This document shows, piece after piece, positions 14,050-30,061 of a stretch of 41,656 bases of DNA. Source of the stretch: Oculatellaceae cyanobacterium bins.114 (lineage in GTDB: Bacteria > Cyanobacteriota > Cyanobacteriia > Elainellales > Elainellaceae); NCBI GenBank assembly GCA_033764315.1, contig JANRJA010000166.1, forward strand, positions 1 to 41,656. The letters are read 5' to 3'. The notes under the pieces are model-generated. The model had not been told where the DNA came from and ran no database searches. It saw only the letters and a list, made by a program, of their open reading frames with translations. Positions within the stretch are counted from its first letter, which is position 1. Every line of letters begins with the position of its first letter. A program made the translations under genes and the position numbers.

Positions 14050-14241
14050 TTGTGCAATTGCCCAATAAAGTACACCAAGATGATTTATTTCTTTATGCAA
14101 TTGCCTAATGAATTCACAAAATTGAATAGTTAGGATGACGTTATGTGGTTTCTTCACATAGCAGATTTATTGTTCATCGCACGTCAGATTTGAGTTGAGA
14201 TATTTGAGCTTTAGAACAACTCTCTTTGTGCAATTGAACGA
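14050..14241 (+). promoter_or_regulatory. Three imperfect palindromes; candidate CdaR/PucR operators
   Basis: TTGTGCAATTGCCCAA (14050-14065), TTATGCAATTGCCTAA (14093-14108), TTGTGCAATTGAACGA (14226-14241). Confidence 0.6.
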
Positions 14242-14289: not shown

Positions 14290-15399
14290 ATGGAAACGCG
14301 TCTCAGCAACAATTATCGATTGCAACACCCACTGCCCAAACAGATTGTGGTTGTGCGATCGCTCCCTGGGTTGGGCGATCTCCTCTGTTGCATTCCAGCT
14401 ATCCGAGCACTGCGGGCTGCTCTGCCAGAGGCTCACCTAACACTGATTGGGTTGCCTTGGGCAAAATCGTTTGTGCAGCGGTTTGGGCACTACTTTGATG
14501 AGTTCTTAGAATTTCCCGGTTGCCCTGGAATTCCAGAAGTGGTCTTAGAGCCTGACCAGATCGTTGCCTTTTTAGCCCAGGCACAACACCGTAATTTTGA
14601 CCTGGCATTGCAATTGCATGGCACTGGCACCTCTATCAATCACTTTGTCATGTTGTTGGGGGCAAAACAAGCGGCAGGCTTCTTTCCCAAAGGACAGTAT
14701 TGCCCTGATCCACAGCGTTTTCTGCCCTATCCAGAGCACGAACCAGAAGTGTGGCGACATCTTCGATTACTAGAGTTTTTGGGGATACCGTTGCAGGGAG
14801 ATGATTTGGAATTTCCCATCCACGAGTCTGATTGGCAAGATTGGCAGACGATCGCCACAGAACACAATCTCAGACCGGGTCGTTATGTGTGCATTCACCC
14901 TGGAGCCAGTATCAAGGCTCGACGCTGGGCACCCGAATATTTTGCGCTAGTCGCAGACGCACTGGCAGCACAGGGATGGCAAATCGTTTTGACGGGTACG
15001 GCGGCTGAAGCTGATTTGACGCAAATCGTAGCTGAAACGATGCGTGCTCCAGTTGTAAATCTGGCGGGCCAAACCCACTTGGGGGCGATCGCTGCTCTGT
15101 TGAGTCAGGCGCAACTATTAGTTTGCAATGATACAGGGGTTTCCCATTTGGCTGCTGCACTGCGAGTCAGGAGCGTGGTGATTTTCTCCAATTCTGATCC
15201 CCATCGTTGGGCTCCTCTCGATCGTCAGCGTCATCGCGTCGTGGTGGATGCAGCTTTGTTGCGGCATCAGGTGCAGTGGGGGAATGAGGGTGTTGTGCAA
15301 CAGGCCATCGCCCCTGACTTTTGTTTTCCAGCCACCCCTGTTGTCGTATTAGCACAAGCCCTAGAAATACTGCATCAGGAGGTGCCCCATGCATCCTGA
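14290..15399 (+). CDS. Glycosyltransferase family 9 (ADP-heptose heptosyltransferase-like)
   Basis: RSLPGLGDLLC, FDLALQLHG, IHPGASIKARRW, VCNDTGVSHLAAAL. Confidence 0.93.
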   Translation: METRLSNNYRLQHPLPKQIVVVRSLPGLGDLLCCIPAIRALRAALPEAHLTLIGLPWAKSFVQRFGHYFDEFLEFPGCPGIPEVVLEPDQIVAFLAQAQHRNFDLALQLHGTGTSINHFVMLLGAKQAAGFFPKGQYCPDPQRFLPYPEHEPEVWRHLRLLEFLGIPLQGDDLEFPIHESDWQDWQTIATEHNLRPGRYVCIHPGASIKARRWAPEYFALVADALAAQGWQIVLTGTAAEADLTQIVAETMRAPVVNLAGQTHLGAIAALLSQAQLLVCNDTGVSHLAAALRVRSVVIFSNSDPHRWAPLDRQRHRVVVDAALLRHQVQWGNEGVVQQAIAPDFCFPATPVVVLAQALEILHQEVPHAS

Positions 15400-15961
15400 G
15401 GATTGGCGTGCCGTGGGCCGTTTGCTGGTGGTGGGGGGTAATCCGCAACCAGCGGAGGTGCTTTCTCTTCACGCTGCTCTGTCATTCGTGAGACGTGCCC
15501 TACCTGAGGTTGACCTGACAGTGTTAACCGTGGAGACATTAGACCTTGAGGCTTTGCAAGCGATGCAAATAGAGGCGATCGCCCTAGTTGACCGAGAGAG
15601 GTCTGATCAAGATTTACAACCTACCGATTCCTCTGCCTACAACACCCCTCTTGATCAAGGAAGCAGAGCAGATCTGATGCAGCAGGCTAAACCGCTCATT
15701 CAACACTTGGGCGATCGCAGATTTGATGCTGCCCTGATCTTCACGACTCCGACCCAATCTCCCTATGCCTGGGCTTATCTCTGTTATTTAGCAGGGATTC
15801 CCATTCGCATTGGGCAGTCTCAAGAGTTTGGTGGAAGAGTGTTATCAACCTGGGTTTCGCCTCCATTAGAAGAGGTTTCCACCACTGAATATTATCTGCA
15901 CTTATTACAATCGATCCGTTTAACCGCAACTCAAAAATCTCAACCTCAGCTTGTAGTTTAA
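15389..15961 (+). CDS. Stand-alone GT9 N-terminal half-domain protein (190 aa)
   Basis: FDAALIFTTPTQSPYAWAYLCYLAGIPIRIG matches the GT9 paralogues at 22033 and 25150; no C-terminal domain; SD AGGAGG and 11-nt overlap with the upstream gene. Confidence 0.8.
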   Translation: MHPEDWRAVGRLLVVGGNPQPAEVLSLHAALSFVRRALPEVDLTVLTVETLDLEALQAMQIEAIALVDRERSDQDLQPTDSSAYNTPLDQGSRADLMQQAKPLIQHLGDRRFDAALIFTTPTQSPYAWAYLCYLAGIPIRIGQSQEFGGRVLSTWVSPPLEEVSTTEYYLHLLQSIRLTATQKSQPQLVV

Positions 15962-16022
15962 TTCAAACCCGCATTCAGATTAATCACTCAAAACACCATT
16001 CAAAAATTACATTAAACTCTTT

Positions 16023-16988
16023 ATGCCGCTACGAATTTTAACCTGGCACGTTCACGGAAGTTATCTCTACTATTTGACTCAAGCCCCTCATGAGTTTTAT
16101 TTGCCGGTGAAGCCGGGTAAACCAGAGGGATATGGAGGGCGATCGGGCAATTTTCCTTGGGGTGATAATGTTCACGACATTGCAGCCGATGAAGTACGGC
16201 ATCAGTCGTTTGATTGCATCTTATTTCAGTCACGTCGCAACTATTTACAAGACCAATACGAGATTTTATCCCTGACTCAGCAACAACTGCCTCGGTTATA
16301 TCTGGAGCACGATCCCCCGCGTGAGCACCCCACCGATACGCCACACATTGTAGATGATCCAGCCATCTTGCTGGTTCATGTCACCCACTTTAATCGCCTC
16401 ATGTGGGATAACGGACAGACCCCAACCTGTGTGATCGAGCATGGTGTGATGGTGCCAGACCATGTGCACTACAGCGGTGAACTGGATTGTGGCATTGTCG
16501 TCATCAACGGTTTGAAAAAGCGGGGTCGTCGCCTGGGAGCCGATTTGTTTGAACAGGTTCGACGCACTATTCCCCTGGATCTCGTCGGTATGGATGCAGA
16601 ATCGCTGGGCGGATTGGGTGACATAGCCCATACCCAACTCCCTCCCTTTGAAGCACGCTATCGATTTTTCTTTCACCCCGTTCGTTACACCAGTTTGGGA
16701 CTGGCGGTATGTGAGGCAATGATGCTGGGCTTACCCATTATTGGCCCTGCCACAACAGAACTGGTGACTGTGGTCGAGAACGATATTTCTGGCTATGTCC
16801 ACACGGATGTAGAGGTTTTGATCGAGCATATGCAAGCTTTATTAGCCGACCCAGCAAAGGCACGGCGATTAAGTGCAGGAGCCAGAGACCAAGCACGATC
16901 GCGCTTTCACATTACCCGATTTGTCCAGGATTGGAATGATGCATTTGAACGGGTGGTCAGTCGTCCACTCATGCCCGCGGCGGGATGA
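16023..16988 (+). CDS. Glycosyltransferase, GT4-like
   Basis: C-terminal PVRYTSLGLAVCEAMMLGLPII and VENDISGYV of the GT-B donor domain; N-terminal ILTWHVHGSYL. Confidence 0.85.
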   Translation: MPLRILTWHVHGSYLYYLTQAPHEFYLPVKPGKPEGYGGRSGNFPWGDNVHDIAADEVRHQSFDCILFQSRRNYLQDQYEILSLTQQQLPRLYLEHDPPREHPTDTPHIVDDPAILLVHVTHFNRLMWDNGQTPTCVIEHGVMVPDHVHYSGELDCGIVVINGLKKRGRRLGADLFEQVRRTIPLDLVGMDAESLGGLGDIAHTQLPPFEARYRFFFHPVRYTSLGLAVCEAMMLGLPIIGPATTELVTVVENDISGYVHTDVEVLIEHMQALLADPAKARRLSAGARDQARSRFHITRFVQDWNDAFERVVSRPLMPAAG

Positions 16989-17049
16989 ACTTGCAGGAGC
17001 TTTGTAGTGCCTTCCTCTCAATCACAGTCAACCTTTTACCCATCAAATC

Positions 17050-18987
17050 ATGACTAAACGCATTGCTTTAATTAGTGAACATGCCACCCCACTGGGCATT
17101 TTTGGTGGCGTTGATAGTGGCGGACAAAATGTCTACGTGGGTCAATTGGCAAAGCATCTAGCAGCGATCGGGTATGACGTCGATGTGTTTACCCGACGAG
17201 ACCATGAACCCCTTCCAACTGTGGTGGATTGGCAACACGGGGTACGGGTGATTCACGTTCCTGCTGGCCCCCCTACGGCCCTACCAAAAGAGCAACTTCT
17301 GCCTTATATGCGGGAATTCACGGCTTTTATGTTGGATTGGTGTCGGGATCACACGTCCTACGATTTGATCCACGCCAATTTTTGGATGTCGGCTCTAGTG
17401 GCGGCAGAGATTAAACGGGCGATCGCCATTCCCTTTGTGGTGACGTTTCATGCTTTGGGGCGGGTGCGACGATTGCATCAGGGCAAGGCAGATCAGTTTC
17501 CAGATGACCGTTTTGCGATCGAAGATCGGGTGGTACAGGAGGCGGATCACATCATTGCCGAATGTCCTCAAGATCGAGAGGATCTGTTGCAGCTTTATCA
17601 CGCTGATCCCAATCGCATTAGTGTGATTCCCTGTGGGTTTGATACAACCGAGTTTTGGGCGATCGACAAAGTGCGCGCCCGCTTGACTCTAGGCTTGCCC
17701 CCCGATGAACACCTAATTTTGCAACTGGGGCGAATGGTGCCGCGCAAAGGGGTAGATACGGTGATTCGGGGCTTTGCTCACGTCTTAAAACAGCGATCGC
17801 TGCCAGCCCGGTTGCTGGTTGTAGGGGGTGAGGCAGAGGTGCCCGATCCACAATTGACCCCAGAGATTGGACGGTTAACGGCGATCGCACAAGAATTAGG
17901 GGTTGCTCCTCGTGTGACGTTTGTGGGGCGCAAGGGGCGAGAGGTGCTGAAATACTACTACAGTGCAGCAGATGTGTTTGTCACAACCCCCTGGTATGAA
18001 CCCTTTGGCATTACTCCCATTGAAGCAATGGCCTGTGGCACTCCGGTGATTGGCTCTGACGTCGGGGGGGTGAAGTTTACAGTCAAGGATGGTGAGACGG
18101 GTTATCTGGTGCCACCCAACGAACCCGAACGATTGGGCGATCGCCTGTTGCATTTATTAGAAAATCCACAACTGATCAGCTTGTTTGGGAGACAAGCCAT
18201 TCGTCGGGCTCAAGATCACTTCACTTGGGAAAAAGTGACGAGTGCAGTAGCGGCATTATATGAGGAGGTATTGAGCGGTGCAAACGCAGTAGTAGGAGTT
18301 GAGGCCAATCAACTGGCCATTTTGGATCGCGGCTTTGAATCAGTGCTGCGGGCAGTACAGCGATCGCAGCGACTCTTGCGTCCCAGTATTCAGTCAGCCT
18401 CTCAAGCGATGGGCAACTGTTTTTTGCGAGGGGGCAAGTTGTTGATCTGTGGCAATGGCGGCAGTGCAGCCGATGCTCAACACTTTGCCGCAGAACTGGT
18501 GGGACGGTTTTGTTGTCCTCGGCGGGCAGGACTGCCTGCAATGGCACTGACGGCTGACAGTGCGTTTCTCACAGCATGGGCCAACGATGTCAGTTACGAC
18601 GATGTGTTTGCGCGTCAAGTCGAGACGTTTGCAAAGCCGCAGGATGTATTGCTGGGGATCAGCACCAGCGGATGCTCTAAAAATGTAGTTGCAGCCTTTG
18701 AGGCAGCAAAGCGGCTCAATCTCACGTCGATCGCCTTGTTAGGGGGCGATGGGGGTGAATTGCGAACGAAAGCAGACATTGCGATCGTGGTGCCTGCATT
18801 AGAGACGCAACGCATTCAAGAAGTGCAGTTATTGGTGATTCATCTGCTATGTGAGTTGGTGGAGGAACAACTGCTGACAACTCGTTCGAGCGATTTTGAG
18901 CGACTGAGCAATTGGGAGCAAGGTTACGAATTTGACGAGTTTGAAGTGATAGAAGAAACAGCAGCGATCTTGGGAAATCGGGGATAG
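17050..18987 (+). CDS. Fusion of an MshA/SPS-like GT4 glycosyltransferase and a SIS-domain phosphoheptose isomerase (GmhA)
   Basis: ISEHATPL...DSGGQNVYV, GRMVPRKG, YEPFGITPIEAMACG; then CGNGGSAADAQHFAAEL, NDVSYDDVFARQV, GISTSG, RIQEVQ. Confidence 0.92.
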   Translation: MTKRIALISEHATPLGIFGGVDSGGQNVYVGQLAKHLAAIGYDVDVFTRRDHEPLPTVVDWQHGVRVIHVPAGPPTALPKEQLLPYMREFTAFMLDWCRDHTSYDLIHANFWMSALVAAEIKRAIAIPFVVTFHALGRVRRLHQGKADQFPDDRFAIEDRVVQEADHIIAECPQDREDLLQLYHADPNRISVIPCGFDTTEFWAIDKVRARLTLGLPPDEHLILQLGRMVPRKGVDTVIRGFAHVLKQRSLPARLLVVGGEAEVPDPQLTPEIGRLTAIAQELGVAPRVTFVGRKGREVLKYYYSAADVFVTTPWYEPFGITPIEAMACGTPVIGSDVGGVKFTVKDGETGYLVPPNEPERLGDRLLHLLENPQLISLFGRQAIRRAQDHFTWEKVTSAVAALYEEVLSGANAVVGVEANQLAILDRGFESVLRAVQRSQRLLRPSIQSASQAMGNCFLRGGKLLICGNGGSAADAQHFAAELVGRFCCPRRAGLPAMALTADSAFLTAWANDVSYDDVFARQVETFAKPQDVLLGISTSGCSKNVVAAFEAAKRLNLTSIALLGGDGGELRTKADIAIVVPALETQRIQEVQLLVIHLLCELVEEQLLTTRSSDFERLSNWEQGYEFDEFEVIEETAAILGNRG

Positions 18988-19017
18988 AGACACGTTGAGA
19001 TGCCAATTTTCTACATG

Positions 19018-19052
19018 ATCCCCCCAAATCCCCCTTAAAAAAGAGGGTTAGG
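19018..19052. repeat. Partial cyanobacterial CCCCCTT-N-AAGGGGG type palindromic repeat
   Basis: ATCCCCCCAAATCCCCCTTAAAAAAGAGGG; related fuller copy at 39664-39749. Confidence 0.5.
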
Positions 19053-19100
19053 AATGATTACTCAATACATTTTTGAAATTCAACTCAGGGAGAAGCTGAC

Positions 19101-19829
19101 ATGACCGAATTATTGAATGGCAAAGTGGCTCTCGTCACAGGAGGTGGACGAGGCTTAGGAGCCGCCATCTGTGAAACGCTAGCAGAAGCAAAAATGGTAG
19201 CAATCGTGGCTGATATTCAGGTAGATCTGGCAGAACAGGTGGCAGAACAGCTGCGATCGCGCGGATTGGAGGCTCTGGCACTGCCGCTGGATGTCACCAA
19301 TGAGCAGCAAGTAGAAGCCGTAGTCCAAAAAATCGTGGATCAATTTGGACACATTGATGTGTTAGTAAACAATGCCGGAACAGATGTCACGCTTCCGGTC
19401 GAAGAGTTGGCGATCGCCGATTGGGATCGAGTCATGAGTGTGAACTTACGGGCACCGTTCATTCTCGCTAAAACCGTGATGCCCTTGATGAAATTACAGA
19501 GACATGGGCATATCGTCAACATTGCCTCAACTGCCGCTAAACGAGTTTGGGCAAATGCCTCGGTCTATCACGCTAGCAAGTGGGGATTGATGGGCTTGAG
19601 CCATGCTCTGCATGTCGAAGCTCGTCCACATGGAATCAAAGTCACAGCAGTTGTAGCAGGTGGCATGAGAACTCCGTTTTTGCTAGACCGCTTTCCAGAC
19701 ATTGATCCTGGTGTCTTGCAAGACCCCAAAAACGTCGCTGAAACCGTTCGTTATGTCTTAACACAGCCTGCGGAAACGGTGATCCCAGAAATCATGGTCA
19801 TTCCCATGAGAGAGGGGTCATGGCCTTAA
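19101..19829 (+). CDS. Classical short-chain dehydrogenase/reductase (SDR)
   Basis: TGGGRGLG, NNAG, IAS, YHASK; 242 aa. Confidence 0.93.
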   Translation: MTELLNGKVALVTGGGRGLGAAICETLAEAKMVAIVADIQVDLAEQVAEQLRSRGLEALALPLDVTNEQQVEAVVQKIVDQFGHIDVLVNNAGTDVTLPVEELAIADWDRVMSVNLRAPFILAKTVMPLMKLQRHGHIVNIASTAAKRVWANASVYHASKWGLMGLSHALHVEARPHGIKVTAVVAGGMRTPFLLDRFPDIDPGVLQDPKNVAETVRYVLTQPAETVIPEIMVIPMREGSWP

Positions 19830-19879
19830 GACAGGAAGTGAGAGGGTGCAAGGCTAAAAGGGTGGAGTAAAAGGTAAAG

Positions 19880-20536
19880 ATGAGCAGACGAGCTGTATTT
19901 TTAGACAAAGATGGAACCTTAATTCACAACGTTCCCTACAACGTTGATCCTGACAAGATTGACCTGACAGACGGGGCAGCGATCGCCCTACAACAGATGC
20001 ACGCAGCTCAATATGCTTTGATCGTTATCACCAATCAATCAGGCGTGGCGCGAGGTTACTTTCCTGAGACCGCTCTAGCAGCCGTAGAACACCGATTACA
20101 CGAGCTATTTGCCACCGTTGGCGTGCCTCTAACGGGCTTTTATTACTGCCCTCACCATCCCCAAGGCAACATTCCGTTTTATAGCATCGAGTGTGATTGT
20201 CGCAAACCCAAGCCGGGGTTAATCTACCAGGCCGCCCAAGAGCACAAGATTGACCTGACGCAATCCTGGTTTATTGGCGATATTTTGCATGATGTAGAGG
20301 CAGGACGAGCGGCTGGCTGTCGCACTGTGTTGCTCGACAACGGCAACGAAACAGAATGGGAACTGTCTCAAACCCGTTTGCCCCATCATCTGGTCACTGA
20401 TTTGGCTGAGGCGGCTCGACTCATTGTGGCGATCGATCACCCTTTTGATCGCCCGTCGTCCATTGCCTCACGCGCTAGATTGCTCGAAGCGAACCCTGAG
20501 ATTCAGTTGCTCATGGAGGTGAGGCATGGAGGCTGA
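19880..20536 (+). CDS. gmhB: D-glycero-D-manno-heptose 1,7-bisphosphate phosphatase (HAD IIIA)
   Basis: FLDKDGTL, ITNQSGVARG, YCPHHP, CDCRKPKPG, IGDILHD; lies between the gmhA fusion and hldE. Confidence 0.9.
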   Translation: MSRRAVFLDKDGTLIHNVPYNVDPDKIDLTDGAAIALQQMHAAQYALIVITNQSGVARGYFPETALAAVEHRLHELFATVGVPLTGFYYCPHHPQGNIPFYSIECDCRKPKPGLIYQAAQEHKIDLTQSWFIGDILHDVEAGRAAGCRTVLLDNGNETEWELSQTRLPHHLVTDLAEAARLIVAIDHPFDRPSSIASRARLLEANPEIQLLMEVRHGG

Positions 20537-22040
20537 CCTGATCCGTCTGGTGAATGCATGGTCATCGCTTAGCGTTCTTGTGATTGGCGATGTCATGCTG
20601 GATTGTTATCTCAACGGCACGGCCCACCGTCTCTGTCAGGAAGCCCCTGTTCCCGTGGTAGCGGTGAACCAACGCCAAGATTTTCCGGGTGGAGCCGCCA
20701 ATGTGGCCGCTAATGTGGCGAGTCTAGGAGCAACGGTGCGTTTGGTATCGGTCATAGGTGACGATGTTGAGGGCGATCGCCTGCGACAGGCATTAGCGCA
20801 CAACCAAGTAACCACGGCTGATGTGTTCATCACCCCCACTCGCACTACATTGGCAAAACAGCGAGTCTTAGCAGCCGATCAATTGCTCGTGCGCTTTGAC
20901 CAAGGCAGCACTGAAGCGATCGCCCCTGACCTGGAAGATGGGGTCATTGAACATCTCACGGCTGAGTTTGCCAGGTGTGATGCTGTCATCGTGTCGGATT
21001 ATGGGTATGGCATCCTGACTCCACGCATCATTCAAACCCTAGCCAGTCTGCAAGCCCGTTATCCTTGTGTGCTGACGGTAGATTCTAAGCGATTGTCAGC
21101 CTACCAAAAGGTAGGTGTGACCTTAGTGAAACCCAATTACACCGAGGCGACCCAATTATTGGGAATCCCGCAACAATCCGAGCATCGAGTCGAACAAATC
21201 ACCGCTTGGGGCGATCGCCTGTTAGCTCTAACCGGAGCCGATACAGTTGCTGTGACATTAGATGCCGAAGGAGCCGCAATATTTCAGTTGGGGCAATCTC
21301 CCATCCACACCCCTGCTAAATCTGTTCCAGCTCAGCAAACATCGGGTGCTGGAGATACCTATATCAGTGCTTTTACGTTGTCATTAGCAAGCGGCGGAAC
21401 TGTGGCGATCGCCTCTTCCATCGCGGCAGCAGCGACGGCGGTTGTCGTACAACAAACGGGTACAACCCTCTGTTCAGCCACGGCATTGCGTCACACATTT
21501 ACGGTTCCATCCCAAACCGCTTTATCCCAAACAAATTCATCAAAAACAAATTCATCTCAAACAATCAAAATTATCAGCGATCGCACCACTCTCTCTAGCT
21601 GTGTGCAACAGCTTCATGCCGCCGATCGACGGATTGTATTGACCAATGGCTGCTTTGACATTCTCCATGCGGGTCATGTCTCGTATCTAGCACAGGCAAA
21701 GGCTTTGGGCGATGTGTTAATCGTTGGGGTTAATGTAGATGAGACGGTGAGACACCTCAAAGGCAGCGATCGCCCAGTGAATGCTCTCCCCGATCGTCTG
21801 GCCGTGTTAGCCGCCTTGGAGTGTGTTGATTACTTGGTGCCCTTCACAGAATTAATGCCCCATGCCTTGATTCGGGCAATCTGTCCAGCGGTGTTTGTGA
21901 AAGGCGGCGACTACACCCGCGACACCCTGCCAGAAGCGGCTTTGGTCGAAGAATTGGGCGGTCAGGTGCAGATTTTGCCCTACGTTAGCGATCGCTCCAC
22001 CACAAAACTCATTCACCACATCTTGACTACCCATGCTTGA
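20526..22040 (+). CDS. hldE: Bifunctional heptose 7-phosphate kinase / heptose 1-phosphate nucleotidyltransferase
   Basis: IGDVMLD, EAPVPVV, GGAANVA, SDYGYG, KPN, SGAGD (PfkB kinase); TNGCFDILHAGH, KGGDY, RSTT (RfaE-II). Confidence 0.93.
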   Translation: MEADLIRLVNAWSSLSVLVIGDVMLDCYLNGTAHRLCQEAPVPVVAVNQRQDFPGGAANVAANVASLGATVRLVSVIGDDVEGDRLRQALAHNQVTTADVFITPTRTTLAKQRVLAADQLLVRFDQGSTEAIAPDLEDGVIEHLTAEFARCDAVIVSDYGYGILTPRIIQTLASLQARYPCVLTVDSKRLSAYQKVGVTLVKPNYTEATQLLGIPQQSEHRVEQITAWGDRLLALTGADTVAVTLDAEGAAIFQLGQSPIHTPAKSVPAQQTSGAGDTYISAFTLSLASGGTVAIASSIAAAATAVVVQQTGTTLCSATALRHTFTVPSQTALSQTNSSKTNSSQTIKIISDRTTLSSCVQQLHAADRRIVLTNGCFDILHAGHVSYLAQAKALGDVLIVGVNVDETVRHLKGSDRPVNALPDRLAVLAALECVDYLVPFTELMPHALIRAICPAVFVKGGDYTRDTLPEAALVEELGGQVQILPYVSDRSTTKLIHHILTTHA

Positions 22041-23157
22041 CTGGAACACCGCCCAAAACATCCTTTGCATCCGCTTAGACACGATTGGCGACGTGATCAT
22101 GACCACACCCGCCATGCATGCCCTCAAAACAGCACACTCCGATCGGCGCATTACGCTGATGACCTCTTCGGCTGGAGCCGCGATCGCCCCACTCATCCCT
22201 GATCTGGATGATCTGATTGTGTACGACTCTCCCTGGCTCAAGGCAACGGCTCCACGGGTGGATAGCACACCGGAATACGATATGGTCGAGCAACTGCGGC
22301 GATCGCAGTTTGATGCAGCGGTAATTTTTACGGTCTACAGTCAAAATCCATTACCATCCGCTTTTTTGTGCTATATGGCAGGGATTCCGCTACGGTTAGC
22401 CCACTGTCACGAAAATCCCTATCAATTGCTGACCCACTGGATCAAAGACCCAGAACCAGAGCAATTGACTCGCCATGAAGTGCAACGACAGTTAGATTTA
22501 GTCGCCAGTGTGGGGTGTCGAGGTGGCTTGGATGAATCGGACAACCGGATGCGGTTACAGGTTCCACCGGAGGCATTAGCGCAGGCTGAGCAAAGGTTAG
22601 CCGACTTGAGCATTGACCGCGATCGCCCCTGGATTCTACTCCATCCGGGAGCAACCGCTCCTTCACGACGCTATCCCCCCGAAGGGTTTGCAGTAGTGGC
22701 TCGACAGTTGGTGCAGGCAGGAGTGCAGGTGATTTTTACAGGCACAAAACCAGAAGTGGAGTTAATTGAGTCAATTCGTTTTCTGATGAGTGCTCCATCC
22801 CATTCACTGGGCGATCGCCTGTCTCTCAGCGAGTTAACAGCTCTCCTCTCATTGGCTCCACTGCTGGTTTCTAACAATACAGGGCCAGTTCACATTGCCG
22901 CCGCCGTTGGAACGCCCATCGTGGACTTATACGCCCTCACAAACCCTCAACATACTCCCTGGGGCGTGCCCAATCGCGTCTTATTTCACGATGTGCCCTG
23001 TCGCATATGTTACAAGAGCATTTGCCCTGAGGGACATCATCACTGCTTACGTTTAGTTGAGCCAGAAAGAGTTGTCAATGCTGCTTTAGAACTATTACAG
23101 ACGCCAAGACAAGATTCATCGAGCGAAACGATTTTACTAACCCAATGTTTGGTATAA
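22033..23157 (+). CDS. Glycosyltransferase family 9 (WaaF-like)
   Basis: IRLDTIGDVIMTTPA, LHPGATAPSRRY, SNNTGPVHIAAAVG, C-terminal CRIC...CP...HHCL. Confidence 0.93.
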   Translation: MLDWNTAQNILCIRLDTIGDVIMTTPAMHALKTAHSDRRITLMTSSAGAAIAPLIPDLDDLIVYDSPWLKATAPRVDSTPEYDMVEQLRRSQFDAAVIFTVYSQNPLPSAFLCYMAGIPLRLAHCHENPYQLLTHWIKDPEPEQLTRHEVQRQLDLVASVGCRGGLDESDNRMRLQVPPEALAQAEQRLADLSIDRDRPWILLHPGATAPSRRYPPEGFAVVARQLVQAGVQVIFTGTKPEVELIESIRFLMSAPSHSLGDRLSLSELTALLSLAPLLVSNNTGPVHIAAAVGTPIVDLYALTNPQHTPWGVPNRVLFHDVPCRICYKSICPEGHHHCLRLVEPERVVNAALELLQTPRQDSSSETILLTQCLV

Positions 23158-23218
23158 ACCGAGCGTTGAAAATCTTCTTTTTGGGTACATGACGCGATCG
23201 CTAACACCTTCTATAAAA

Positions 23219-23261
23219 CTTTTTTCTCTCTTCTTTTTTTCTTTTTCTCTCTTCTTTTTTT
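23219..23261 (+). repeat. Pure-pyrimidine tandem duplication (22 + 21 nt) immediately before the GT2 start codon
   Basis: CTTTTTTCTCTCTTCTTTTTTT then CTTTTTCTCTCTTCTTTTTTT then ATG. Confidence 0.8.
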
Positions 23262-24062
23262 ATGATTGATATTCTCATTCCCACCTATTGTCGTCCGGCA
23301 GCATTAGCCGTGACTCTGACGAGTCTATGTGCCCAAACCTATCGTAATTTTCGTATCATCATTTCCGATCAAACTGAAGACAGCAGTGCATTTGAGAGTG
23401 GTGAAGTGCAAGCAGCCCTGCGAGTATTGCAAGCACATGGGCACGAGGTTAAGCCGCTCAAACATTTACCTAGACGAGGTCTAGCAGAACATCGGCAATT
23501 TTTACTCGATCAGGCGATCGCCCCCTACGCTTTATTTCTCGATGACGACCTGATTTTAGAACCCTGGGTGGTAGAGTGTTTGCTCAACACGCTGCAAACA
23601 GAGCAATGTGGTTTTGTCGGGTCAGCGGTAATCGGTTTGAGTTTTCACGAGGATATCCGTCCCCATCAGCAAATTCTGGAGTTTTGGGAGGGTCCGGTTG
23701 AACCCGAAATCGTTCGCTCTGGCACTCCGCAATGGGAGCGGTACAAGCTTCACAATGCCGCCAACCCCTATCATGTGCAGCAACAGCTCAACCTGACTCC
23801 TGATCAGCCTCGCACCTATCGGGTTGCCTGGATTGGCGGTTGCGTGATGTATGACACAGTTAAGTTGCGTCAGGTCGGCGGATTTGAGTTTTGGCGTGAC
23901 TTACCCCCCAATCACTGTGGCGAAGACGTGTTAGCTCAGTTGCGTGTCATGGCGACCTTTGGCGGCTGTGGTGTATTGCCTTCTGGCGTGTATCACCAGG
24001 AGTTACCCACCACCATTAGCGATCGCAGCATAGACGCTCCCCAGTTATTGCCAGTGGTATAG
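23262..24062 (+). CDS. Glycosyltransferase family 2
   Basis: ILIPTY, IIISD, FLDDD, VGGF, GEDV GT-A motifs. Confidence 0.9.
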   Translation: MIDILIPTYCRPAALAVTLTSLCAQTYRNFRIIISDQTEDSSAFESGEVQAALRVLQAHGHEVKPLKHLPRRGLAEHRQFLLDQAIAPYALFLDDDLILEPWVVECLLNTLQTEQCGFVGSAVIGLSFHEDIRPHQQILEFWEGPVEPEIVRSGTPQWERYKLHNAANPYHVQQQLNLTPDQPRTYRVAWIGGCVMYDTVKLRQVGGFEFWRDLPPNHCGEDVLAQLRVMATFGGCGVLPSGVYHQELPTTISDRSIDAPQLLPVV

Positions 24063-24072
24063 GGGAGACATC

Positions 24073-26181
24073 ATGAGAGAGATTCGGCACATTCTATTTG
24101 TTGAGCTACTAGGCGGCATTGGCGATCTGTTAATGGCACTGCCTGCCATTCATGCAGTAGGGCGATCGCATCCTCAAGCGCGGCTGACAGTGCTAACGTT
24201 TGCTCCCGGAGGGGAGTTGCTGCAGCATGATCCATTGGTGCATCGAGTGGTGGTTGCACCCAGAGGACAGGCCCGTTTCACATTGGATGGGCTGTTGCTG
24301 GGTGAACAGTTTGACCTGATTATCTCAGATACCAATTACGATGGCATAGCAGATGCCATTCATGACTATCAGGCGCGATTACCCATTGCTCCCATCATAG
24401 TGACGAATCTGTGGCGATCGCCCCCACCGGATCAGCGAGTCTCCGACCGATTTTTAACCGTGTTATTAGCGGATGGTGTAATTCAGTTAGAGGCTGTCAC
24501 ATGGAATCAACCCTATTTATATCTCACTGCAACAGAGCGGGCGATCGCGCGTCAGAAACTGGGGGCTGCTTACCGTCCACTGGTGGTGCTCTGCCCTGAT
24601 GCGGGTATGGCCATCAAACGCTGGGCACCTCACCACTTCATCACCGTTGGTAAAGCGTTGCAACAGCAATATGGAGCCACAATCATCGTTCCAGTGGGTT
24701 CAGATGTCGATCAGGCAATGGCGGTCGCCACAGGAATAGGTGGCACCGCTCAAGTCTGGCAATCCGGATCGCTACGGAGCCTGGCAGCGATGTTAGCAGA
24801 AGCAGATTTGGCGATCGCCGCCGATACGGGGCCAGCCCGGATTGCAGCAGCTCTGCAAGTACCTACAATTACCCTATTTGGTCCCTCATGGCATGGACGC
24901 TATGGGCAACCTGATCCGCACCTCAATTTGCAAGGTTTTCTAGAGTGTCCAGAGCGCAATATCAACAACTTTACCGAGCAAGCCTGTTGGTATAGCGGAC
25001 AGTGCCCGTTTGAGTGGAGCACCTGTCTGGAAGACATTTCACCAACCAGTGTGGTAGAAGCGGCAATACGGTTGCTGCATTCACAAGAAACACAACCATT
25101 TTCAAATGTGATTCATCTCAAGGCACAACCGACCGCGTTAGCCTCTCATTGGCAGTCAGTGCAAAATTTGCTCGTGATGCGACTCGATAACATCGGTGAT
25201 GTGATCATGACTAGCCCTGTGTTGCGATCGCTCAAACAAAACTTACCCAATGCCAAGCTGACCTTGATGGCAAGCCCTGGTGGTGCGTTGACTGAACCGC
25301 TGTTGCCCTGGGTAGATGAGGTGTTGCCGTGGCGGGTGTTGTGGCAAGATTTGGGGAAGCTGGACTTCAACCCCGATCGCGAATGGGATCTGATTGAAAC
25401 CTTGAGTCAGCACAAATTTGATGCGGCAATTATCCTCACCAGTTTTAGCCAAAGTCCTCATCCGGCTGGATTGGTCTGCGCTCTGGCTGGCATTCCCCTG
25501 CGTCTAGGAGAGTCGAAGGAGCAGGATTTAGGCACACTAACCCACGCCATCCCTCCTGCCCCAGATGACTTGCATCAGGTTGAACGCAATTTGAGACTGA
25601 TCGAATCGGTAGGTTTTAAAGTGAGCGATCGCGGTTTGGCATTGCATATCCCGGTGATCTCTCCTCTACGAAGAATAGAACCTTTTCCCTATCTGGTCTT
25701 GAACCCCTGGACAAGTTGCCCATCGCGCAATTATTTCAGCGATCGCTTTGCTCATGCGGCTCGACACCTGAGCCAGATGATGGGTTGGTCGGTCGTTGTT
25801 ACCGGAGTCGAAAAAGATCAAGATCGCGCCCATGAATTGTTAGATTACTTAGGTGAGCACTTGGGCGATCGCGCCATTGACTTAATCGGCAAAACTAGCC
25901 TACCAGAACTGGTGGCGTTAATCGCTGAGGCAAAACTGGTGCTGAGCAATAACACCTCAACAATGCACATTGCCGATGCAACCGGAACTCCCAGCGTCAT
26001 TCTCTTTGCGGGCACAGAACTAGAGCGACAGTGGCAACCGCGTTACAGTCCCACTCGATTATTGCGCCGCCCAACGGTGTGCAATCCCTGCTATACGTTC
26101 AACTGCCCCCATCAGTTGCAATGCCTGGATATTTCCTCAGAGGCCGTTGTAACCGCTGCATTGGAGCTATTAAAAGAGTGA
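24073..26181 (+). CDS. Tandem double GT9 glycosyltransferase (702 aa)
   Basis: Unit 1 ELLGGIGDLLM...ADTGPARIAAAL; unit 2 from about 25150 MRLDNIGDVIMT...SNNTSTMHIADATG; each ends in a Cys cluster. Confidence 0.92.
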   Translation: MREIRHILFVELLGGIGDLLMALPAIHAVGRSHPQARLTVLTFAPGGELLQHDPLVHRVVVAPRGQARFTLDGLLLGEQFDLIISDTNYDGIADAIHDYQARLPIAPIIVTNLWRSPPPDQRVSDRFLTVLLADGVIQLEAVTWNQPYLYLTATERAIARQKLGAAYRPLVVLCPDAGMAIKRWAPHHFITVGKALQQQYGATIIVPVGSDVDQAMAVATGIGGTAQVWQSGSLRSLAAMLAEADLAIAADTGPARIAAALQVPTITLFGPSWHGRYGQPDPHLNLQGFLECPERNINNFTEQACWYSGQCPFEWSTCLEDISPTSVVEAAIRLLHSQETQPFSNVIHLKAQPTALASHWQSVQNLLVMRLDNIGDVIMTSPVLRSLKQNLPNAKLTLMASPGGALTEPLLPWVDEVLPWRVLWQDLGKLDFNPDREWDLIETLSQHKFDAAIILTSFSQSPHPAGLVCALAGIPLRLGESKEQDLGTLTHAIPPAPDDLHQVERNLRLIESVGFKVSDRGLALHIPVISPLRRIEPFPYLVLNPWTSCPSRNYFSDRFAHAARHLSQMMGWSVVVTGVEKDQDRAHELLDYLGEHLGDRAIDLIGKTSLPELVALIAEAKLVLSNNTSTMHIADATGTPSVILFAGTELERQWQPRYSPTRLLRRPTVCNPCYTFNCPHQLQCLDISSEAVVTAALELLKE

Positions 26182-26244
26182 TGGAACAGAAAGCAAAAAG
26201 CGAGAGAACCTCTACTTCCTGCTCCCACTCCCCTATACATCGAC

Positions 26245-26260
26245 TCCCTCTTTTGACAGT
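26245..26260 (+). promoter_or_regulatory. Shared palindrome upstream of gor (possible internal promoter)
   Basis: TCCCTC-TTTT-GACAGT in the 141-nt gap; only a weak -10 (CACTAT) nearby. Confidence 0.45.
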
Positions 26261-26322
26261 GGTTCAGGTGAGTCAATCAACACTATTACAGAAATGGCGA
26301 TTATAGCTGGGCGAATAGAGCA

Positions 26323-27666
26323 ATGGCATACGACTACGATTTGTTAGTGATTGGGGCAGGACCTGGCGGATTGGCAGCCGCCAAACGGGCTGCTCATTAC
26401 GGGGCAAAAGTGGCGATCGCCGAACGAGAGGCTTTAGGTGGCGTATGTCTAAACCAGGGCTGTATTCCTAAAACGCTAATGGCTTATGCATCACGCTTTC
26501 AACAATGGTTAGAGGATGCTCGTTGCTATGGCTGGCAATTAGAGCAAGCTCAGTTTAATTGGCAACAGTTTCGTAAGGCACGAGATCATGAGATCGAGCG
26601 GGCCCGCCAAAGCCATACCAAAACCCTTACTGAGTCAGGAGTTGACCTCTTATCAGGGCAAGCTATTTTTGTAGACCCTCACACCTTAACGGTGGGCGAA
26701 CAGACCGTGTGTGCTGACAAAATATTGGTTGCCGTTGGAGGCAAGCCAATCAAGCCTGATATTCCTGGAGTTGAGCATTGTGTCACCTCACGCGAGATGT
26801 TTGCTTTAGAAGAGTTGCCCAAACGGTTGGTCATTATGGGCGCAGGCTACATTGGCGTAGAGTTTGCCAGTACGTTTCGAGGCTATGGGGTTGAGGTTAC
26901 TCTGATCAACGCTGACGCAGAGATTTTATCGGGCTTTGACGATGATCTGTGTAAAACAGTCCACAATGGCTTAACAGAACGCGGTATTGGCATGTGGTGT
27001 AACACTAAAGCCAAACAGGTTGAGCCAGTCGCGGATGGATTGCAGATCACACTCTCTGGCAATTGCCCTGAGACGCTGATGGCAGATCTCGTGCTGTGCG
27101 CCATTGGTCGTACCCCCAACTTGGATGAACTCAAGCTAGAGCAGGCGGGTGTCGAGGTTAAGGAACAAGCGATCGCCATAGATGAGCAATACTGCACCAG
27201 TCAACCTCACATTTTTGCCGTGGGTGATTGCACCAATCGGGTGCCGCTAACACCTGTGGTGCGCACCGAAGGGCGCATCTTTGCCGACATTCACTTTGGC
27301 GATTCTCCGTGTCAATTGACCTATGATCTGATTCCCTCGGCTGTTTTTTCCCATCCTCAAGCAGCCGGAATTGGACTCACCGAAGCCAAAGCTCGAAAGA
27401 AATTTGGAGATGAGGCGATCGCCTGTCAGAGCATCCAATTTCAACCGTTGTTTAATCGCTTGCTCGATCATCCCACGTCACCCAATCTGTTTAAGCTGGT
27501 GCTGCAAAAGTCGTCGGGTCGAATTTTAGGAGCACATCTAGTGGGAGATCAGGCCGCTGAAATGATTCAAGGAATCGGGCTAGCGATGCAACAAGGCGTG
27601 ACCCAGCACAACCTTGAAACGATGATTGGCGTCCATCCTACAACCACTGAGGAACTGTTGAGTTAG
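26323..27666 (+). CDS. gor: Glutathione-disulfide reductase-like flavoprotein
   Basis: GAGPGG, GGVCLNQGCIPK redox disulfide, GAGYIGVEFA, GDCT...LTPV, HPTTTEE. Confidence 0.85.
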   Translation: MAYDYDLLVIGAGPGGLAAAKRAAHYGAKVAIAEREALGGVCLNQGCIPKTLMAYASRFQQWLEDARCYGWQLEQAQFNWQQFRKARDHEIERARQSHTKTLTESGVDLLSGQAIFVDPHTLTVGEQTVCADKILVAVGGKPIKPDIPGVEHCVTSREMFALEELPKRLVIMGAGYIGVEFASTFRGYGVEVTLINADAEILSGFDDDLCKTVHNGLTERGIGMWCNTKAKQVEPVADGLQITLSGNCPETLMADLVLCAIGRTPNLDELKLEQAGVEVKEQAIAIDEQYCTSQPHIFAVGDCTNRVPLTPVVRTEGRIFADIHFGDSPCQLTYDLIPSAVFSHPQAAGIGLTEAKARKKFGDEAIACQSIQFQPLFNRLLDHPTSPNLFKLVLQKSSGRILGAHLVGDQAAEMIQGIGLAMQQGVTQHNLETMIGVHPTTTEELLS

Positions 27667-27668
27667 TC

Positions 27669-28943
27669 ATGTCCAGGACTTCTATCAAAGTAGCGTTGAT
27701 TGCCGGAACTTATCATCCACAACAATGTGGGGTAGCTCACTACACCTTGCATCTGAGGGATGCGCTGGCTCAACGAGGCATTGATTCAACAGTACTAACG
27801 ACCCATGTAGCGGCTAAAGTCCAGGATGCCAGTGTCATTGGAGCCGTGACCGAATGGCGATTCACCGATCTGCTGTCGCTAGTCAAGACCATTCACAAAA
27901 CTCAAGCCCATATCTTACACATTCAACATGCCGCAGGAACTTATGGCTTCGATCGCACCATTTTTTTGCTGCCACTGGTGTTGAAACTCAGCGGTTGGCG
28001 ATCGCCCATTGTCACGACACTACATGAATATGGTTGGTGGGAATGGCAACCCCGATGGCTGCCTGCCGATTGGGTAGAAACGTTGAAAACCTGGGGACAA
28101 GAGCGCGGTTGGTGGGATCGAGAAGACGGATTTTTGTTGACGCAGAGTAACGCCATTATCACGACCAATGCAGAGGCTCAACAGGTCGTGAATTCACGTT
28201 TGCCCGATTTAGTAGACCGGGTTCAACAGATTCCCATTGGAGCCAATATCGCGATCGCCCCCATCTCTCGATCTCAAGCTAGACAAGCTCTGCGACAGCG
28301 GTGCGGCTGGGCTGATGATACTCTCGTCTTCGCGTTCTTTGGTTTTTTGCATCCCGTGAAAGGCTTAGAAACGTTGCTGCTTGCGTTTCAGCAGATTACA
28401 GCAACCTATCCAAAGGCTCGTCTGGTGTTAATCGGAGGCGTGGAAAGCCTTGCTTTGCCTGAGCTACAAGCAAAACACTATTGGGATCAACTGCAAGCCC
28501 ACATTGCAGACCTGAAGTTGCAACAGGTAGTCCACATGACGGGGTATTTAGACCCCATCGTAGTGTCTGAATGCTTACGGGGAGCAGACATAGGCGTGCT
28601 GCCATTCAATCATGGGGTAACGCTCAAAAGCGGTTCTTTGTTGGCGTTGATGGCTCATGAATTGCCTGTGATTGCTACCTGTGCCAATCCGCCTGACCCT
28701 GAGTTAGCAGGCGATCGCCTGCTGTACTTGATTCCCCCCCGCAACGAGGCAAGTCTGGTAACAGCCATGCAACATCTGGCAGGCAATGCAGACCTGCGAC
28801 ATCAATTGGCACAAGCCGGATCTCGATTTAGTCAACCGTTTACCTGGTCTAGCATTGCCGATGCTCATCAAGCCGTCTATCACTCTGTTTTGACGGCCTC
28901 TCCGTTGTCTAGTCCGTTTGCCGAGAGACCACTAACCTCATGA
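27669..28943 (+). CDS. Glycosyltransferase family 4
   Basis: CGVAHYT, VTTLHE, FFGFLHPVKG, ADIGVLPF. Confidence 0.9.
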   Translation: MSRTSIKVALIAGTYHPQQCGVAHYTLHLRDALAQRGIDSTVLTTHVAAKVQDASVIGAVTEWRFTDLLSLVKTIHKTQAHILHIQHAAGTYGFDRTIFLLPLVLKLSGWRSPIVTTLHEYGWWEWQPRWLPADWVETLKTWGQERGWWDREDGFLLTQSNAIITTNAEAQQVVNSRLPDLVDRVQQIPIGANIAIAPISRSQARQALRQRCGWADDTLVFAFFGFLHPVKGLETLLLAFQQITATYPKARLVLIGGVESLALPELQAKHYWDQLQAHIADLKLQQVVHMTGYLDPIVVSECLRGADIGVLPFNHGVTLKSGSLLALMAHELPVIATCANPPDPELAGDRLLYLIPPRNEASLVTAMQHLAGNADLRHQLAQAGSRFSQPFTWSSIADAHQAVYHSVLTASPLSSPFAERPLTS

Positions 28944-30061
28944 AACGTCACCCTCTGCACGTTGTCATATATACCGATGCTGCCGGAATGGGTGGTGCGG
29001 AAATTAGTGTAGGACACTTGATTGCAACAATATCTCCCGATATTCAAATCACTGTGGTGGGGGTTGTGGCTAATGTGGTAAATGCGATCGCCGATCGTCG
29101 TCCTCACACCACTCGGTTAGTACTGCCTACACCAAGAATTCACTCATGGGTTACTCATCTGGCAACCTTTAGACAACTGCAACCCGATATTATTCACTGC
29201 AATTTGTGTACTCCGTGGGCCTGTGCGATCGCTCTATTTACTGCACTTTTATTGCCTCATACTCGTGTCGTCCGAGTCGATCAGTTGCCACTACGGACAA
29301 CAGATTTAATCACCTGGTTAAGAACTCGGTTGCTGTCTCTGCGAGTGGATGCTCATGTGGCAGTGGGTCAAGCCAGTGCCCGCCGTATGGAAGATTTCTA
29401 CGCCTTGGGGCGGGATACGGTAATCTCAATCCCCAATGGGGTTCCAGACTACTGCTCCCAACTGTCGCCATCCCAAAACCCAGCCAAATCTGACAGGATG
29501 ATCGTCGGTAGCATCGGTCGGTTAGATGCGATGAAAGCCCACGATATCTTACTCAGGGCGATCGCTCAAGTGGATGGGGTGCAAGTTGTCATTTTAGGTG
29601 AGGGTGCAGAACGTCCTAATTTAGAACGATTAGCAGTAGAACTGGGAGTGGGCGATCGCCTCCAGTTACTGGGTTGGTTGGATGTTCCTCAAGCCTATTT
29701 ATCAGGGTTTGATGTTGTGGCTCTGCCTTCTCGCTCTGAAGGGTTTCCTCTAGCGATGGTAGAGGCGATGTTAGCAGCACGCCCAGTGATCGCCACTCGT
29801 GTCGGCAGTATGCCTGAAGCCATCATTGACGGACAAACCGGGCTGCTGATCGAAAAAGATGATGTAGAGGGGCTAGCTCACGCGTTACGGCGATTGCGGG
29901 ATAACCCTCACTGGCGATCGCAGTTGGGGAAAACCGCTCGTGAATTGGCGATCGCTCAGTTTACGGTAAAGGCAATGGCTCAGCGTTACGAAGACTTATG
30001 GGATAAGGTGCTCAGTGCCCCACAACGATCACGGTGGCGTGTCCCTCGTCCTAAAGATTAG
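28940..30061 (+). CDS. Glycosyltransferase family 4
   Basis: GGAEIS, IPNGV, IGRLDAMKAH, PSRSEGFPLAMVEAM; ATGA overlap with the previous gene. Confidence 0.92.
   Translation: MKRHPLHVVIYTDAAGMGGAEISVGHLIATISPDIQITVVGVVANVVNAIADRRPHTTRLVLPTPRIHSWVTHLATFRQLQPDIIHCNLCTPWACAIALFTALLLPHTRVVRVDQLPLRTTDLITWLRTRLLSLRVDAHVAVGQASARRMEDFYALGRDTVISIPNGVPDYCSQLSPSQNPAKSDRMIVGSIGRLDAMKAHDILLRAIAQVDGVQVVILGEGAERPNLERLAVELGVGDRLQLLGWLDVPQAYLSGFDVVALPSRSEGFPLAMVEAMLAARPVIATRVGSMPEAIIDGQTGLLIEKDDVEGLAHALRRLRDNPHWRSQLGKTARELAIAQFTVKAMAQRYEDLWDKVLSAPQRSRWRVPRPKD

Follow-up and report, generated by a model that had tools for sequence, protein, structure and literature searches.

What is made by a run of 13 cyanobacterial genes that encode a heptose donor pathway together with many glycosyltransferases? 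The run lies at positions 14290-30061 of the window, by which I mean the whole analysed stretch of 41,656 nucleotides (contig JANRJA010000166.1 of Oculatellaceae cyanobacterium bins.114). An earlier note, made from the letters of this DNA, had read it as a cluster for an uncharacterised heptose-containing product other than a lipopolysaccharide (LPS) inner core. The comparisons reported here, which rest on sequence data, indicate that it is a real, widespread, non-LPS heptose glycan operon related to the cwg operon of Streptomyces coelicolor, and that it represents a new variant with its own predicted activator. The product is probably a sugar chain containing seven-carbon sugars. I put the odds at about even (0.5) that this cwg-type operon builds a heptose-containing oligosaccharide in the cytoplasm and is switched on by its own CdaR-family activator.

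The operon and its relatives

The open reading frame (ORF) calls gave 13 + strand ORFs at 14290-30061, co-oriented and partly overlapping as the earlier note had described, with overlaps at 4 of the 12 junctions and intergenic gaps from -11 to 141 bp. Its domain inventory was borne out by Pfam and NCBIfam: four full GT9 domains (in 14290, in 22033, and two within 24073), four GT4 domains (in 16023, the N part of 17050, 27669, and 28940), a GT2, an SDR, a GmhA fused to a GT4, GmhB, HldE, and a Gor-like protein. The genes are as follows.

14290..15399, +: GT9a, heptosyltransferase-family enzyme (Pfam); in one tree group with the second Streptomyces GT9 (cwgJ position)
15389..15961, +: stand-alone N-terminal half of a GT9; no Pfam match; dN/dS 0.34
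16023..16988, +: GT4a (Pfam), GT-B fold; most diagnostic gene of the family
17050..18987, +: GT4b, similar to sucrose-phosphate synthase (SPS) and MshA, proposed to act in priming, with GmhA phosphoheptose isomerase fused on (from about 18286)
19101..19829, +: classical SDR oxidoreductase (Pfam); 56 of 80 related loci
19880..20536, +: GmhB-type HAD-IIIA phosphatase (NCBIfam); 67 of 80 loci
20526..22040, +: HldE kinase/nucleotidyltransferase (NCBIfam), motif YVSDRSTT with Arg at position 5
22033..23157, +: GT9b (Pfam); groups with the first Streptomyces GT9 (cwgE position)
23262..24062, +: GT2 glycosyltransferase (Pfam); 35 of 80 loci
24073..26181, +: tandem GT9c-GT9d fusion (Pfam); separate genes in several loci
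26323..27666, +: glutathione-reductase-like (Gor-like) oxidoreductase, second paralogue, accessory; clustered only in the window, its congener G001, and locus L009
27669..28943, +: GT4c (Pfam), accessory, in cyanobacterial loci; 12 of 80 loci
28940..30061, +: GT4d (Pfam), accessory, in mostly cyanobacterial loci; 5 of 80 loci at 40% identity or more

The GmhA domain covers residues about 426-611 of its fusion protein. GmhB scores above the TIGR01656 cut-off and below the GmhB equivalog cut-offs; the nucleotidyltransferase domain of HldE exceeds the TIGR02199 cut-off, the whole protein stays under that of NF008454, and the Gor-like protein scores under its model cut-off. No clear transmembrane segment was seen in any of the 13 proteins (KD19 maximum 1.82). 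A fold search with GT4a returned many GT4s at 10-16% identity, which is informative at the family level only, and the SDR and GT2 had no informative PDB relative. Against G001, dN/dS is 0.03-0.13 for 12 of the 13 genes, the half GT9 being the remaining one. All 13 genes are genuine and uninterrupted, and they evolve under purifying selection.

The 190-residue product of the half GT9 aligns with the N-terminal half of GT9 proteins, and a full-length GT9 occupies its position in several other loci. The half is retained as a gene for 130-210 residues in more than 10 cyanobacterial loci and one Chloroflexota locus. It is possibly a non-catalytic acceptor-binding partner.

Is there a known system of this kind? 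Plasmid searches found relatives of GT4a in Streptomyces, Nonomuraea, Arthrobacter, and Clavibacter. One Streptomyces locus (L084) has a 12-gene operon in the order dehydratase, carbamoyltransferase, GT2, HAD, GT9, GT4, GT4, SIS, rfaE, GT9, GT2, GT2. Seven of its proteins (GmhB, two GT9, GT4a, GT4b, GmhA, and HldE) match window proteins at 30-50% identity; the GT9 pair, GT4a, and the MshA-like GT4b are 30-43% identical to those of L084 and L085, and GT4a is 39% identical to the Streptomyces gene at the cwgF position. The labels of S. coelicolor SCO6179-6188 fit the L084 order position by position (PMC5839063, PMC4630627, bioRxiv 2025.04.11.648403, PMC3902916), and those in the first three sources read nucleotide-sugar dehydratase, transferases, 'dehydratase', glycosyltransferase, phosphoheptose isomerase (cwgH), and bifunctional synthase/transferase (cwgI). 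It appears, then, that the window cluster, which has seven orthologous domains in common with L084, is a relative of S. coelicolor cwg (SCO6179-SCO6190, cwgA-L), whose gene order matches that of L084, the final link being made by annotation order and not by direct sequence match. GmhA, HldE, and GmhB are co-located in the window, as in a cwg-type operon.

The two systems also differ. cwg has a dehydratase, a carbamoyltransferase, and a cwgC-type GT2, and the window lacks all three; a carbamoyltransferase had no match in the whole genome, and one was found in 21 of the 80 related loci. Additional in the window are an SDR, another GT2, two further GT9 domains, the half GT9, GT4c/d, and Gor. Its GT4b is fused to GmhA, and it has an apparent CdaR-type activator rather than sigma-E. 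Since three cwg genes are absent and others are added, the window cluster would be a cwg variant. cwg has been named since 2002 in a model organism, and its product is only predicted in the literature found. The present finding ties it to a cluster found across many phyla and speaks against the LPS labels under which databases list the genes of that cluster. A deacetylase gene adjoins the cluster in Burkholderia (PIG-L, L081:21688-22383) and in S. coelicolor (SCO6178).

How widespread is the cluster? The earlier note had suggested a synteny search across cyanobacteria and LPS-free taxa. A scan with GT9b gave at least 546 relatives among at least 599 candidates, and 80 loci were kept for neighbourhood counts. 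They are titled Cyanobacteriota, Chloroflexota, Planctomycetota, Pseudomonadota, Acidobacteriota, Gemmatimonadota, and others, so the cluster recurs across many phyla, including 11 Chloroflexota carriers that lack LpxC. At 40% identity or more, GmhB was found in 67 loci, GT4b in 58, the SDR in 56, GT4a in 51, GT9a and the HldE kinase in 46 each, GT2 in 35, and GmhA in 31. Gene order is mostly that of the window, and many loci are themselves truncated. With only some candidates scored, phylum-wide samples contained at least 13 carriers in 151 (around genome G050) and at least 2 in 201 (around G044). The cluster is present in 22 of 40 genomes of the family. The earlier note had overlooked that the cluster extends beyond cyanobacteria and has a named relative, and that Gor, GT4c, and GT4d are only accessory genes. 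As core members, Gor, DUF6658, DoxX, UvsE, and DUF2264 were rejected (each in 0-1 of the first 80 loci), and so was an ABC exporter, which is orthologous in 6 loci of one lineage only.

Is it an LPS core locus?

The LPS inner-core system (GmhA-HldE-GmhB-HldD, WaaA/C/F/Q) shares the donor pathway enzymes and the GT9 family with the cluster. The earlier note had seen no Kdo, lipid A, WaaL, Wzx/Wzy, or ABC export genes in the window, and none was found among the 32 window ORFs scanned with Pfam. It had also proposed a genome search for kdsA, kdsB, and waaA. In the 6.6-Mb, 90.7% complete assembly, WaaA had no match, and the models for KdsA, KdsB, and HldD gave scores below their cut-offs only; LpxC is present. 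Among 21 carriers tested, LpxC is absent in 11 of 11 Chloroflexota and present in the other 10. WaaA occurs in 14 of 50 carriers, none of them cyanobacterial or Chloroflexota. Since LpxC-negative Chloroflexota and Actinomycetota loci carry the cluster, it is not restricted to lipid A producers. One locus titled Actinomycetota (L018) has LpxC and a cyanobacteria-like cluster, and it was left out of the LPS-free count.

When 68 GT9 domains were placed in a tree, GT9a and GT9b/d joined groups that are specific to the cluster and include Streptomyces proteins (support 97 and 91); GT9c joined a cyanobacterial group. No window GT9 lies in the WaaC clade, and the position of WaaF was left open by the tree. 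The window GT9s have a pI of 5.6-6.1 and an N-half net charge of 0 to -7, against +6 to +10 for WaaC/F/U and +2 for WaaQ of Escherichia coli. Judged from this quick tree, which has many open forks, and the charge counts, they show neither the basic acceptor domain of WaaC/WaaF/WaaQ nor a grouping with them. Diderm carriers hold separate GT9s elsewhere, and in one of them (G084) such a gene adjoins waaA. The separate, acidic GT9 clades, the missing WaaA, the sub-threshold HldD, and the carriers in LPS-free phyla together indicate that the cluster is not an LPS-core locus, as the earlier note had argued.

Could the operon add heptoses to a Kdo-less cyanobacterial LPS instead? Several observations tell against a non-LPS reading. 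LpxC is encoded in this genome, two of the GT9 proteins exceed the TIGR02195 (WaaF) cut-off, the cluster GmhA is the sole strong GmhA-like SIS_2 match in the assembly, and D-glycero-D-manno-heptose has been reported in Spirulina LPS (PMC4515613). Such a modification is nevertheless very improbable, given the WaaA, KdsA, and KdsB results, the orthologous clusters in LpxC-negative Chloroflexota and in Actinomycetota, the separate GT9s kept by diderm carriers, and the presence of the cluster in merely 22 of 40 family genomes. The earlier premise that cyanobacterial LPS lacks heptose is only a rule of thumb; the Spirulina report and a second, dispersed gene set in this genome speak against its being general. 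This set consists of an adjacent GT9 and GmhB, HldA, and HldC, and the assembly has no second strong GmhA.

G000 C8:30468-31794, C139:59923-60750, C2:4800-5207: dispersed GT9/GmhB/HldA/HldC set, in a genome with no WaaA match

Heptose donor and proposed product

GmhA, HldE, and GmhB would make NDP-D,D-heptose. The isomerase, kinase, phosphatase, and nucleotidyltransferase are all present with their catalytic motifs, so the heptose pathway named in the earlier note is there with intact catalytic residues. The GmhA residues H/E/Q/H are conserved in 28-30 of 30 sequences (R in 23), and the GT9 catalytic Asp in all rows except one gapped row. Compared with the motif (F/L)XXGRSTT of STTR5, a promiscuous HENase, the HldE motif YVSDRSTT keeps Arg5 and deviates at Tyr1 and Asp4; Arg5 is retained in 24 of 33 related motifs. 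This Arg marks CTP/UTP use (PMC11573728, PMC11461863). An HldE domain is found at the locus in 10 of 11 Chloroflexota and in 4 of 14 WaaA-positive carriers, a contrast that would fit WaaA-positive carriers borrowing the heptose supply of LPS. The retention pattern of HldE supports heptose as a working donor. HldE consists of the kinase domain alone in L003, L009, L010, L015, L034, L037, and other cyanobacterial loci, for which the nucleotidyltransferase may come from a dispersed HldC.

What is the acceptor? The best PDB match of GT4b is Tll1590, the SPS of Thermosynechococcus (E 1.7e-76), and MshA is also close. K80, H134, R154, R228, and E317 of GT4b are invariant in 56 of 56 sequences, including those of Streptomyces, and align with R105, H158, R178, R249, and E331 of this SPS, in which R105 and R178 hold the acceptor phosphate (PMC7264703). 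GT4b scores 133 bits against the SPS model TIGR02472 (cut-off 576), and the genome has two more SPS-like paralogues (36%) at other places. From the conserved residues I infer that GT4b primes the glycan on a sugar phosphate. As a retaining SPS/MshA-like enzyme, it would transfer a hexose from an NDP-hexose onto a phosphorylated sugar; in some lineages it might transfer GlcNAc, as MshA does. Because GT4b is fused to GmhA, the most plausible acceptor would be a seven-carbon one, heptose or sedoheptulose 7-phosphate handled by the fused isomerase. With priming on a sugar phosphate, no lipid carrier would be needed.

The four GT9 domains would then add heptoses, GT4a/c/d and GT2 would add hexoses, and the SDR would change one residue; in other phyla, tailoring by carbamoyl, methyl, and radical-SAM enzymes would follow. 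A known parallel is the cyanobacterial SPS (Tll1590) with glucosylsucrose synthase (Tll1591), which make soluble salt-stress oligosaccharides (PMC9909042). GT4b keeps the active-site residues of SPS, and the proposed logic is alike, namely priming on a sugar phosphate and extension to a soluble stress oligosaccharide; the window cluster differs by its heptose donor pathway and GT9 extension. By analogy with this route, the product may serve as an accessory protective glycan of terrestrial, stress-exposed strains. More specifically, and only tentatively, GT4b-GmhA would make a glycosyl-heptose or glycosyl-sedoheptulose 7-phosphate, a seven-carbon counterpart of sucrose or trehalose phosphate, which the GT9s would extend into a branched heptose oligosaccharide. 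If true, many bacterial phyla would have in common a class of intracellular protective glycan that has gone unrecognised; it would account for the product of Streptomyces cwg, still missing, and give LPS-free bacteria a reason to make NDP-heptoses. No report on the cluster product or on the occurrence of the cluster in cyanobacteria was found in the accessible literature, subscription papers being outside reach, and to that extent the earlier description of the product as uncharacterised stands.

Several points weigh against a cytoplasmic oligosaccharide. For a small solute, eight or more transferase domains is a large number. The donor specificity of the GT9s is assumed from their family, and in GT9c an Arg replaces the His of the DTGxxH motif. 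A lipid carrier, a flippase, and a ligase could be provided from elsewhere in the genome, and an MsbA-like exporter adjoins the cluster in 6 Oxalobacteraceae-type loci. The main rival is the original cwg hypothesis, in which a heptose-containing cell-wall or surface polysaccharide is built on a carrier and housekeeping genes perform priming, flipping, and attachment. The 12-gene cwg is described as a predicted cell wall glycan synthesis operon, partly sigma-E dependent and vancomycin-induced (PMC6767563), features that point to the envelope; cwgA is up under salt (PMC13011467) and under cold shock (bioRxiv 2025.04.11.648403). Related loci in other phyla contain carbamoyl, methyl, radical-SAM, and pyruvyl tailoring genes. 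Carbamoyl, pyruvyl, and methyl tailoring is typical of surface glycans. I nevertheless regard an envelope glycan as somewhat unlikely. The gene order is near-identical in monoderms and diderms despite their very different envelopes, and no priming phosphoglycosyltransferase, flippase, polymerase, or carrier was present among the recurring neighbour families examined in the 80 loci. The GT9s are acidic and without membrane segments, and GT4b has a predicted sugar-phosphate acceptor site.

The soluble appearance and carrier-free set of enzymes would also suit a heptose glycan built directly on a protein in the cytoplasm, and ADP-heptose is known to serve protein glycosylation (PMC11461863, PMC11573728). 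It is an unlikely reading: no substrate gene recurs in the 80 loci, GT4b is closest to the small-molecule enzymes SPS and MshA, and Pfam found no TPR domain in the 13 ORFs. Quite improbable, too, is a glycolipid assembled on a phospholipid or diacylglycerol in the cytoplasmic membrane. A phosphate-binding GT4 could accept a phospholipid head group, and PimB-type enzymes share the fold (rank 37 in the search with GT4a), but the conserved core contains no acyltransferase or membrane protein, and the GT9s are acidic.

A predicted activator and a putative operator

How is the operon controlled? A CdaR/PucR-family gene and a set of palindromes in the 490-bp gap before GT9a, both outside the 14290-30061 span and missed by the earlier note, are of interest.

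8712..9914, +: CdaR/PucR-family regulator, proposed dedicated activator; N-terminal sensor-like domain, GGDEF-like domain, and helix-turn-helix (HTH)
14050..14065: operator box 1, TTGTGCAATTGCCCAA; identical in congener G001
14093..14108: operator box 2, 43 bp after box 1; overlaps the expected -35 position
14131..14136, +: TAGGAT, predicted -10 box, 22 nt past box 2; predicted transcription start near 14143
14226..14241: operator-like box 3, within the predicted 5' leader; kept in G001

The regulator has a C-terminal HTH_30 and a GGDEF_2 domain (Pfam) and shares 25% identity with E. coli CdaR along its whole length. It fails the CdaR equivalog cut-offs (Diacid_rec 21.4 bits against 23.6; NF008550 81.9 against 612). 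Its predicted model (pLDDT 80.6) matches the PucR-family structures Rv2242 and BAD_0249 at the family level. The ORF caller places the start at a TTG at 8664 and the database protein at 8712. The gene is single copy in the genome, with a dN/dS of 0.04. Conservation is lowest in the N-terminal sensor, which is also shortened compared with CdaR, so the effector probably differs from that of CdaR.

The regulator and GT9b occur in the same 16 genomes among 41 relatives, and they are concordant in 40 of 40 family genomes (22 with both, 18 with neither), and this holds inside the mixed genera g4 and g17 as well; the 40 genomes overlap the 41-relative set, and kin are not independent. A PucR/CdaR-family gene orthologous to 8712-9914 is found in 9 of the 80 loci, inside the operon in L017, L018, L028, and L034. 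By genome, the regulator is present in 13 of 15 cyanobacteria, 3 of 11 Chloroflexota, and none of 17 others.

In the predicted promoter, two TTGTGCAWWTGCACAA palindromes stand at a distance of 43 bp, followed by a -10 box. With up to 3 mismatches, all three matches to TTGTGCAATTGCACAA in the window lie in the gap before GT9a; shuffles of the whole window gave a mean of 0.42 and reached 3 matches in 2 of 100 cases. All three boxes are conserved in G001. Among loci with enough sequence, 15 of 19 cyanobacterial loci (L018 and L037 counted as such), 3 of 10 Chloroflexota loci, and 0 of 24 others have the motif in the 650 bp upstream of GT9a or GT4a, against under 1% in shuffles. The three Chloroflexota with the motif are the same three that have the regulator. 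For 31 loci picked for having a box (the window included), one first box was taken from each; 29 of them show a second box at +42 to +44 (shuffles 1.6%), and 25 a second box with a TAnnnT hexamer 22-23 nt later (shuffles 0.05%). This spacing places box 2 near -42. A box near -42 is in the class II activation position. The layout of tandem palindromes and TAnnnT differs from that of a sigma-E (extracytoplasmic function) promoter. On this strong comparative evidence, the regulator would bind the two palindromes, the second at about -42, and activate the TAGGAT promoter.

E. coli CdaR controls cdaR, garP, and garD. The same palindrome lies 52 bp before cdaR (NC_000913.3:182396) and in the garP-garD gap (NC_000913.3:3275076), there with a second box 42 bp upstream, and 7 further matches exist in E. 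coli. These palindromes are a candidate CdaR operator. The domain layout, the palindrome, and the 42-bp tandem spacing at garP/garD are thus shared with the CdaR regulon; the proposed target here is a biosynthetic operon, not sugar-acid catabolism. Two observations count against the proposed control: the vicinity of E. coli gudP has no box at up to 3 mismatches, and one locus (L079) keeps a degenerate promoter in a genome where the regulator was not found.

Taken with the co-occurrence, the operator conservation suggests that the regulator is likely a dedicated activator of the operon. A wider regulon in its own genome was rejected, as only three further sites were found at up to 2 mismatches, none in tandem. 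Generic scans gave no excess (sigma-70 promoters 13 against 18.0 in shuffles, terminators 14 against 17.2). No report on this regulator and operator was found, subscription papers again being outside reach; the co-occurring CdaR/PucR-family gene and the conserved predicted operator-promoter layout appear to be the new elements here. On the tentative reading of the product given above, the cyanobacterial glycan would be induced by a CdaR-type factor that responds to a new signal. Two handles are offered, namely a candidate priming enzyme with a testable acceptor and a predicted dedicated regulator with a precise putative operator. With the latter, the pathway might be induced in cultured cyanobacteria and its product thereby sought directly.

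Possible stress link and genomic setting

Is the cluster linked to stress? UvsE, encoded at 30717-31655 of the window, is found in 17 of the 22 family genomes with the cluster and in 1 of the 18 without it, mostly unlinked to the cluster, and hemerythrin-like neighbours occur in 11 of the 80 loci. Together with the induction of Streptomyces cwg, these observations are only indirect evidence for the earlier suggestion that the product is made under stress. Flanks of related clusters (L084:1667-5478, 18256-21605) contain GAF-ANTAR, PP2C, STAS, CsbD, BON, PRC-barrel, and hemerythrin-like genes. Such genes are typical of general-stress regulons. According to the authors of work on NDP-heptoses, little is known of what heptoses do outside LPS, and hints should come from the genes nearby (PMC11573728).

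The GC content of the cluster is 0.513, against 0.476 for the genome and 0.433 for the flanks, and 1.9% of 537 genome windows reach 0.51. A recent genomic island was ruled out by synteny with G001 at a dS of 1.0-2.2. Because of this synteny and divergence, the cluster is best read as an old accessory block, long resident in the lineage. The closest named proteins come from filamentous Oculatella/Leptolyngbya-type cyanobacteria.

A DUF2264 gene (9975-12077, -) lies between the regulator and the operon. Since it is absent from the syntenic G001 region and from all other loci compared, it is taken as a lineage-specific insertion. Further upstream are a PsaL paralogue (3743-4258, -) and a CBM48-GH13 glycosidase gene (6568-8220, -), the latter also missing from the syntenic G001 region. 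In another locus, an IS605-family element (L013:689-2401) separates the operator-promoter from the first gene.

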